Below the pieces are notes generated by a model. That model saw only the letters and a program-made list of their open reading frames with translations, made no database searches and had not been told where the DNA came from. Below, in pieces: positions 47,297 to 48,024 of a stretch of 64,000 nucleotides of DNA. Where the stretch lies: assembly GCF_003334355.1 (NCBI RefSeq), contig NZ_QOWP01000005.1, one strand, 5' to 3'. Source of the stretch: Escherichia coli (GTDB lineage Bacteria; Pseudomonadota; Gammaproteobacteria; Enterobacterales; Enterobacteriaceae). Made by a program: the position numbers and the translations under genes. Each line of letters starts with the position of its first letter. Position 1 is the first letter of the stretch.

Positions 47297-47872
47297 TCAA
47301 CGCCTGATAAGCGGTTGAACTTTGTTATCAATAGCTTCCCTCGCTCGGAAGATACGTGAACGCACCGTACCTACCGGACAATCCATGATAGCGGCTATCT
47401 CTTCATAGCTCAGGCCATCCAGCTCCCGCAAGGTTATTGCCATGCGTAAATCTTCCGGGAGGGACTCAATAGTTCGGAAAACTATCTGTCTCAGTTCTTC
47501 TGACAACATTAAGTTCTCAGGGTTCGAAATTTCTTTCAACGCGCCGCCACTTTCGAAGTTTTCAGCTTCAATGGCATCCACATCACTGGAAGGTGGACGA
47601 CGCCCCTGAGCAACCAGGTAATTTTTCGCTGTATTTACAGCAATCCGATACAGCCATGTATAAAAAGCGCTATCTCCCCGGAACGAATCCAGCGCACGAT
47701 AGGCTTTAATAAAAGCTTCTTGTACCACATCGGGAACATCACCCGACGGCACATAGCGGGAAACCAGACTCGCCACTTTATGCTGATAGCGCACTACCAG
47801 TAAGTTAAAGGCTTTCTGATCTCCCTTCTGGACCCGTTCAACCAGGACCTGGTCCGTTAACTGCTCGCTCAT
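47297..47872 (-). CDS. rpoE: RNA polymerase sigma-E factor
   Basis: ORF 47297-47905; start placed at MSEQLTDQVLVERVQKGDQKAF for a 191-aa product. Confidence 0.95.
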   Translation of the reverse strand: MSEQLTDQVLVERVQKGDQKAFNLLVVRYQHKVASLVSRYVPSGDVPDVVQEAFIKAYRALDSFRGDSAFYTWLYRIAVNTAKNYLVAQGRRPPSSDVDAIEAENFESGGALKEISNPENLMLSEELRQIVFRTIESLPEDLRMAITLRELDGLSYEEIAAIMDCPVGTVRSRIFRAREAIDNKVQPLIRR

Positions 47873-48024
47873 CCGAGGTAAAGTCTCCCCAAACCAAATT
47901 TCCACGCGCTATCGAAACGCCACTCCATTAGCTGCAATTTGAGCAAGCAAAGGATTAGAGTGTCTCGTTTTTGTAAAGTTCCGTAACGCATCTGTTTTTG
48001 TTTGTCATGCTGTAGACGGATCAT
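47869..48024 (-). CDS. rseD: 51-codon leader ORF whose TGA overlaps the rpoE ATG (rseD-like)
   Basis: Manual translation of the minus strand gives MIRLQHDKQKQMRYGTLQKRDTLILCLLKLQLMEWRFDSAWKFGLGRLYLG, ending in TGA within ggATGAgc at the rpoE start; below the ORF-track length cutoff. Confidence 0.55.
   Translation of the reverse strand: MIRLQHDKQKQMRYGTLQKRDTLILCLLKLQLMEWRFDSAWKFGLGRLYLG
47953..47983 (-). promoter_or_regulatory. Sigma-E-dependent promoter (rpoE P2-like)
   Basis: Minus strand GGAACTT (-35, 47976-47982), 16-bp spacer, TCTAA (-10, 47955-47959); lies inside the leader ORF. Confidence 0.75.

Follow-up and report, generated by a model that had tools for sequence, protein, structure and literature searches.

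Overlaps in which the stop codon of one gene shares bases with the start codon of the next (ATGA or TGATG) are found between operon genes such as trpE-trpD and trpB-trpA, and the four-base overlap permits termination followed by reinitiation. An arrangement of this kind is present in E. coli K-12, where rseD lies between nadB and rpoE, is 51 codons long and ends in an ATGA overlap; according to Yakhnin et al. 2017 this ORF is reportedly translationally coupled to rpoE, and loss of the coupling is said to cut rpoE translation by more than half. The operon is rseD-rpoE-rseA-rseB-rseC (PMC8595263; also PMC9147696), and EcoCyc puts rseD alongside trpL, hisL and others on its list of leader peptides (PMC7815308). 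rseD resembles the attenuation leaders of this class (trpL, hisL, pheL) in that it is short, translated and located in the 5' leader of its operon, but it differs from them in having neither a terminator/antiterminator nor a run of regulatory codons, and its output would be re-initiation or unmasking at the overlapping start. A likeness is also seen in the idlP (ORF27)-iraD pair of E. coli, in which a short upstream ORF slightly overlaps the downstream start and CsrA is involved (PMC7652899); both pairs have a downstream gene that governs a stress sigma factor pathway. The two pairs differ in that CsrA represses the upstream ORF of iraD and acts only via coupling, whereas the CsrA sites reported for rpoE are on the rpoE Shine-Dalgarno (SD) sequence and start codon itself (PMC7652899).

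The window analyzed here, a stretch of 64,000 nucleotides from an E. coli contig (NZ_QOWP01000005.1), carries this same gene and differs from the K-12 locus only by allele. The initial annotation, made from the sequence alone, had described an uninterrupted 51-codon ORF upstream of rpoE and had named a leader peptide, rseD, described at this location, and both statements proved to be accurate. The ORF listing contains an uninterrupted ATG-started frame of 51 codons plus TGA on the minus strand (48024 to 47869) that encodes the peptide MIRLQHDKQKQMRYGTLQKRDTLILCLLKLQLMEWRFDSAWKFGLGRLYLG, and the RefSeq feature "rseD, rpoE leader peptide RseD" (WP_001325470.1; 1777–1932 of annotated locus L001) corresponds exactly to window positions 48024–47869. 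The peptide matched the NCBIfam equivalog NF033697 leader_RseD with 103 bits (E = 7e-30; cutoff 35), the 45 positions of the profile aligning to RseD residues 7–51. rseD lies in the nadB-rpoE intergenic region, directly upstream of rpoE and on the same strand; rpoE itself (minus strand, 47297–47872) encodes the 191-residue envelope-stress sigma factor sigma-E, which scored 328.7 bits against TIGR02939 RpoE_Sigma70 (cutoff 236), and the annotated rseD and rpoE CDSs overlap by 4 nt in RefSeq. The neighbors by annotation are nadB upstream, and rseA and rseB after rpoE. A 601-nt query around the site was 100% identical to E. coli ATCC 8739, HS, and other strains, the rseD region was present as one copy in 5426 of 5426 complete E. 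coli genomes, and the annotation of all 60 E. coli genomes in an even sample included rseD. Translation of rseD has been shown by a chromosomal lacZ translational reporter (Yakhnin 2017) and again by PIRT-seq, in K-12/BW25113 only (PMC12350097). A spurious ORF call was considered and rejected on this published translation evidence. The 51-codon ORF is rseD, the leader ORF of E. coli rpoE, and the finding is already known because it is represented in RefSeq, as an NCBIfam equivalog and in EcoCyc, and has published evidence of translation.

As had been claimed, a sigma-E-type promoter lies within this ORF (47955–47982, minus strand), with a -35 element GGAACTT at 47982–47976, a 16-nt spacer, and a -10 element TCTAA at 47959–47955, both motifs being downstream of the rseD ATG. 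The sigma-E consensus of Rhodius et al. (PMC1312014) is GGAACTT / TCAAA, with a purine at the start and an A/T-rich region upstream; the -35 element matches it at 7/7 positions and the -10 element at 4/5, and the motif is kept in most of the Enterobacteriaceae relatives. The usual spacing and the preference for a purine predict a transcript start at about G47948, and because this promoter is inside rseD its transcript lacks the rseD AUG. All rpoE promoters have been described as "upstream of, or within" rseD (PMC8595263). There are six of them, the proximal P6 (formerly P2) being autoregulated and sigma-E-dependent, while the distal promoters include P2 (sigma-54 with QseF), P3 (sigma-70 with RcsB), and P4 (sigma-S) (PMC6358824; PMC5736990). 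With P6 in the proximal position (PMC6358824), the earlier proposal that only transcripts from more distal promoters include the ORF stands for the full ORF; it needs qualification for the 3' part of rseD, since there is an in-frame AUG at codon 33 (47928–47926), ~20 nt from the predicted 5' end of the sigma-E transcript, from which this transcript might yield a 19-codon rseD remnant stopping at the same UGA.

Upstream of the ORF, the alignment revealed a perfect TATAAT (48033–48038, minus strand) that is conserved across Enterobacteriaceae and ends 9 nt before the A of the rseD ATG, making it a candidate -10 element of a distal rpoE promoter. This TATAAT (48038–48033) has no recognizable -35 partner, and a scan of 47800–48320 for sigma-70 promoters and intrinsic terminators found nothing. 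A transcript that it may fire would start 0–3 nt ahead of the rseD AUG and render rseD leaderless; the sequence has no SD before the rseD ATG. An Rfam scan of 47000–48600 (E ≤ 1) gave only a chance miRNA match on the other strand and no known RNA family.

These scans bear on whether rseD could be a classical attenuation leader, in which ribosome stalling would control a downstream terminator. Such a role would fit the grouping of rseD with trpL, hisL and other leader peptides in EcoCyc, and there is an RNA 3' end inside rseD (K-12 position 2710044, about window position 47894); however, Adams et al. score that 3' end "No" for Rho dependence, the peptide has no runs of regulatory codons, and the overlap of its stop with the downstream start points to coupling instead. 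Since there is no intrinsic terminator-like site in 47800–48320, we reject attenuation, to which we attach almost no credence.

The junction between the two genes reads CTCGGATGAGCGAG, with the rpoE ATG at 47872–47870 and the rseD TGA at 47871–47869, so that, as first described, the stop and start codons share two bases (TG) in an ATGA at 47869–47872 on the minus strand. The overlap had also been interpreted as the classic arrangement for translational coupling. While the overlap is present, its interpretation as a derived coupling signal does not survive comparison with other species, in which it appears as a by-product of the Met-Ser start of RpoE. Across 80 gamma-proteobacterial rpoE loci, nearly every ATG-started rpoE reads ATGA, RpoE beginning with Met-Ser/Asn (ATG AGC / AAC / AGT); the only exceptions are in Haemophilus/Rodentibacter. 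The near-universality of ATGA is thus due to RpoE starting with Met-Ser (ATG AGC) and, being forced in this way, ATGA is by itself no evidence of coupling. The frame that ends at this TGA varies greatly in length among relatives: it has 51 codons from an ATG in E. coli and E. albertii and 54 codons from an ATG in Citrobacter, is open for only 38–44 codons and often has no ATG in Enterobacter, is mostly shorter still (about 10–40 codons) in Pantoea, Serratia, Morganella, and others, and has 3–5 codons in most Vibrio. Sporadic ATG frames of 49–75 codons, with peptides unlike RseD, were seen in Enterobacter sp. Ag1, Klebsiella sp. BIGb0407, Pantoea sp. 1.19, and Zobellella. To estimate the chance expectation, the 407-nt nadB-rpoE intergenic region was shuffled 20,000 times with its dinucleotides preserved. 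With the TGA as a given, 0.75% of the shuffles had an ATG frame that reached 51 codons or more, and 2.7% had an open frame of this length irrespective of its start. A 51-codon ATG frame is unusual for a single locus; genome-wide this is not decisive.

A search of 5.8 billion proteins identified RseD only in Escherichia/Shigella and Citrobacter, besides one fragment assigned to "Pseudomonas", and none of the homologs had a precomputed Pfam domain. The "Pseudomonas" fragment is on a 320-nt contig and is probably contamination. In an alignment of 17 Enterobacteriaceae, 1- and 2-nt indels within the ORF separate genera and break the frame; in Escherichia and Citrobacter the frame is open for 51–54 codons with no indel, and in-frame ATGs at codons 1, 12 (47991–47989), and 33 are specific to this clade. 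This combination of an open frame and clade-specific ATGs could reflect some selection on the ORF. The start codon varies even within the clade: E. coli has the ATG at 48024, the C. freundii group has an ATG three codons upstream within TATAATG, and in C. amalonaticus the annotated RseD begins at the counterpart of Met12. It is due to this variation that the NF033697 profile omits the first six residues. Between E. coli and Citrobacter the dN/dS of rseD was 0.7–1.2, values with a wide error as they rest on 17–23 substitutions per pair, and substitutions were evenly spread over the codon positions (e.g., 6/8/7), compared with a dN/dS of 0.01–0.03 and codon-position counts of, e.g., 3/1/31 for the rpoE control. 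Purifying selection on the RseD peptide, i.e., a dN/dS well below 1 with an excess of third-position changes, was not seen in these E. coli–Citrobacter comparisons. The invariant RseD residues fall on the A-rich stretch and -35 element (KQKQMRYGT), the -10 element, the GCTTGCTC block (C26-L27-L28), GAGTGGCG, the GGA motifs, and the SD, and these regulatory elements are also conserved in genera with a broken frame. Taken together, these comparisons argue that the amino-acid sequence of RseD is under no detectable constraint. Compared with overlaps of the trpE-trpD type, rseD appears to be a young, unconstrained ORF lying over promoter and UTR elements, and its TGA is present in all relatives regardless of the ORF.

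In 5388 of 5426 E. coli genomes the 172-nt rseD region has an identity of at least 99%, a conservation that the overlapping promoter would enforce in any case. The allele in the window has Ile24 (ATC, with T at 47954, directly after the sigma-E -10 element), compared with Thr24 (ACC) in E. albertii and in the E. coli strains at loci L087 and L088. A natural E. coli allele carried on at least 24 contigs has Trp41 changed to a stop (TGG to TAG; G47903A); with this allele rseD ends 30 nt before the rpoE AUG, and one GGA motif (47901–47903) is also lost. As this W41stop allele occurs in natural strains, exact coupling is not essential.

These comparisons bear on two further explanations of the ORF. 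In the first, RseD is a small protein with a function of its own, exerted in trans on the sigma-E pathway, and the overlap merely co-expresses it. Its Rse name implies a role in this pathway, the ORF is translated and co-transcribed with sigma-E regulators, both Escherichia and Citrobacter keep its frame intact, and its homologs are well conserved in their C-terminal half. However, the conserved residues are those that coincide with DNA and RNA elements retained where the frame is broken, the dN/dS is ~1 and substitutions show no bias towards third positions, both the N-terminus and the start codon are variable, W41stop is found as a natural allele, and neither a Pfam domain nor a homolog beyond Escherichia/Shigella/Citrobacter was found among the 5.8 billion proteins; we consider a trans-acting RseD very improbable. 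The second is that the ORF is an evolutionary accident, a stop-free stretch of regulatory DNA ending at an unavoidable TGA, whose translation and coupling are tolerated without adaptive value. This would agree with the near-universal ATGA being preceded in most genera by a frame of 0–40 codons or one without an ATG, with the neutral-looking substitutions and the natural nonsense allele, with the lack of an SD before the rseD ATG, and with a chance probability of about 1–3% per locus. Against it, the loss of more than 50% of rpoE translation that reportedly follows from removing the coupling would be a large effect for an essential, tightly dosed sigma factor, and the region is at least 99% identical in those 5388 of 5426 E. 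coli genomes, though the overlapping promoter would impose that too. We think an accident without adaptive value is unlikely. The dN/dS of ~1, the variable start, the frame breaks, and the W41stop allele together argue that any benefit of the ORF would come from its translation in cis, and a cis-acting coupling role seems more likely than a functional peptide.

The usual optimum for the distance between SD and AUG is 5–9 nt. At rpoE, the GGAG is 12 nt from the AUG, a spacing compatible with a start site that gains from help. CsrA binds the rpoE initiation region, with reported sites at the rpoE SD and start codon (PMC7652899), and three GGA motifs on the minus strand of the window are candidate CsrA sites: one in GUGGAAA (47901–47903), a candidate third site that is also rseD codon W41, one in GGGGAGA in the rpoE SD region (47886–47888), and one in CGGAUGA overlapping the rpoE start codon (47872–47874). 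We infer that the published sites are these GGAs at 47903–47901, 47888–47886, and 47874–47872. When rseD is compared with idlP-iraD, the overlap of stop and start codons is shared, but rseD has no GGA at the start of the upstream ORF; the GGAs on either side of this start are at 48133 (upstream) and 47982 (downstream) with none between them, so there is none within ~40 nt of the rseD start at 48024.

Folding of the predicted sigma-E transcript pointed to a further feature of the rpoE initiation region. In the minimum free energy (MFE) fold, the first nucleotides of this transcript, GCUUGCUC (47948–47941), pair with GAGCGAGC just past the rpoE AUG, and RNAalifold on 30 Enterobacterales predicted a 9-bp helix between GCUUGCUCA and UGAGCGAGC. 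The 5' strand of the predicted helix (47940–47948, minus strand) is a conserved block at the predicted 5' end of the sigma-E transcript that corresponds to rseD codons 26–28, and the 3' strand (47863–47871, minus strand) comprises the UG of the rpoE AUG, codons 2–3, and the first base of codon 4. Across the 30 Enterobacterales, 98.9% of the helix cells are paired, versus 33–49% when the partners are slid by 1–3 columns, and 12 of 12 one-sided changes (C to U, or A/G) keep the pairing. There were no double compensatory changes in these 30 sequences because the codons for Met-Ser-Glu-Gln hold the 3' strand constant, and for this same reason a shuffle control on the helix alignment is uninformative. 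We also scanned for complementarity without an anchor, as a strict sigma-E promoter regular expression was unsuited as one outside Enterobacterales. In 29 of the 30 Enterobacterales this unanchored scan found an unbroken helix of 8 bp or more at -71 to -82, often lengthened to 12–14 bp by differing flanking bases, with 0–5 of 300 shuffles matching the helix in most species; it saw no such helix in Vibrio, Aeromonas, Shewanella, or Haemophilus. Two Alteromonadales-like loci (L057 and L068) have GUUUGCUU/GUUUGUU after a sigma-E-like -10 element, opposite GAGCGAAC, with one apparent compensatory change from C-G to U-A that accompanies GAG to GAA. In single-sequence folds, neither the sigma-E transcript (z = -1.16) nor the full leader (z = -0.91) was more stable than shuffles. 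A hairpin at the SD was set aside, as its register differs between the MFE and alignment folds.

The conserved block could be kept for promoter or initial-transcript reasons instead of for the helix, and a role for the helix as a gate on rpoE translation or as a stabilizer of the 5' end is plausible but unproven. As a tentative model, which we regard as possible but doubtful, the regulatory device of this region would be an RNA helix conserved in Enterobacterales, formed by the first 9–14 nt of the sigma-E transcript with the rpoE AUG and codons 2–4, that gates translation and/or protects the 5' end, with rseD as a recent addition in Escherichia/Citrobacter that opens the gate on distal transcripts. 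Our literature search, which did not extend to two key papers, found no description of a helix gate or of a leaderless rseD.

Taken as a whole, we hold it to be highly probable that rseD is the known leader ORF whose translation in cis on distal-promoter transcripts raises sigma-E synthesis through coupling to, or unmasking of, rpoE, the peptide itself being dispensable. On transcripts from the distal promoters (P1–P5: sigma-54/QseF, sigma-70/RcsB, sigma-S, and others), ribosomes would start at the rseD AUG (48024–48022), traverse the sequence of the sigma-E promoter and the rpoE 5' UTR, and finish at the UGA overlapping the rpoE AUG. A ribosome terminating there could re-initiate at rpoE, and in passing it would displace CsrA from the GGA sites and open local structure, probably including the GCUUGCUCA/UGAGCGAGC helix; re-initiation and clearing together would raise the synthesis of sigma-E from distal transcripts. 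Transcripts from the sigma-E promoter (~47948), having no rseD start, would need direct initiation at rpoE, which would be repressed by CsrA. The benefit of rseD would thus lie in the act of translating it in cis, the 51-residue peptide giving no sign of a conserved function.

Sigma-E is essential in E. coli and harmful if over-produced, and so each layer that sets its level matters. The rseD layer has already been described, annotated, and entered in the standard databases, and the comparisons made here refine this picture rather than change it. A young and unconstrained peptide argues that what matters is translation in cis and not an RseD protein, and an ATGA overlap at rpoE does not, on its own, indicate coupling. 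As to how rpoE translation is gated on the main sigma-E-dependent transcript, the conserved helix that links the 5' end to the AUG is a modest but testable lead.

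The sigma-E transcript may pair, near its predicted 5' end, with the rpoE start region. A conserved block, GCUUGCUCA (47940-47948, minus strand), lies directly 3' of the sigma-E -10 element, at the predicted 5' end of the transcript, and is complementary to UGAGCGAGC (47863-47871, minus strand), which spans the rpoE AUG and the codons that follow it. In 29 of the 30 Enterobacterales loci compared (L002-L031) the two segments can pair without interruption over 8 bp or more, and where one side only had changed the pairing was kept in all cases. The helix was not found in Vibrio, Aeromonas or Shewanella, and we came across no account of it in the accessible literature.

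Natural variation in E. coli affects both the leader peptide and a candidate CsrA site. In the strains represented by loci L087 and L088, a G to A change at 47903 (minus strand) converts rseD Trp41 from TGG to TAG, which cuts RseD to 40 residues, with translation ending 30 nt short of the rpoE AUG; the same change abolishes the GGA of the GUGGAAA motif, and the TAG allele was present in at least 24 contigs. According to the Term-seq supplement of Adams et al. (2021), an RNA 3' end maps within rseD and the rpoE 5' UTR, at K-12 position 2710044 (minus strand; ~47894 in the window). The sequence terminates in ...GTGGAAATTTGG and the rpoE AUG follows 22 nt further on; the 3' end thereby falls between the GUGGAAA motif and the rpoE Shine-Dalgarno region, and it is scored there as not Rho-dependent. 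The strains of L087 and L088 also share with E. albertii a C at 47954 (minus strand), where the window has T; the position directly follows the sigma-E -10 (TCTAAC versus TCTAAT in the window) and decides whether RseD residue 24 is Thr or, as in the window, Ile.

Rare RseD variants were recovered from Shigella flexneri (P0003), E. coli (P0013 and P0017) and a 320-nt contig labelled 'Pseudomonas aeruginosa' (P0016). They included one 64-residue form, whose C-terminus extends beyond the usual stop, apparently as the result of an indel just upstream of the rpoE ATG, as well as frameshifted forms of 36-39 residues, and the E. coli-like fragment under the Pseudomonas label is probably contamination. 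Separately, Zobellella taiwanensis and a related MAG (L046 and L059) have ATG-initiated ORFs of 74-75 codons upstream of rpoE that stop at an equivalent ATGA junction; their peptides are similar to each other and unrelated to RseD, and instead of being real ORFs these might be antisense to the divergent neighbour gene.

Two further ATGs are in frame with rseD, Met12 (47989-47991) and Met33 (47926-47928, both minus strand); like Met1 they occur in Escherichia and Citrobacter alone, and the Met12 and Met33 positions are AGG, TAG or TGG in other genera. As the predicted sigma-E start site lies 5' of Met33, sigma-E transcripts could carry a 19-codon ORF beginning there and ending at rseD's own UGA.

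Upstream of rseD, the end of a perfect TATAAT (48033-48038, minus strand) is 9 nt from the A of the rseD ATG; the hexamer is part of GACTTATAATGA, a sequence conserved across the Enterobacteriaceae. No recognisable -35 was found for it, and rseD of the C. freundii group is annotated as starting at the ATG within this TATAATG. If this TATAAT were the -10 of a distal rpoE promoter, the transcript would have only 0-3 nt ahead of the rseD AUG, and rseD would therefore be leaderless.
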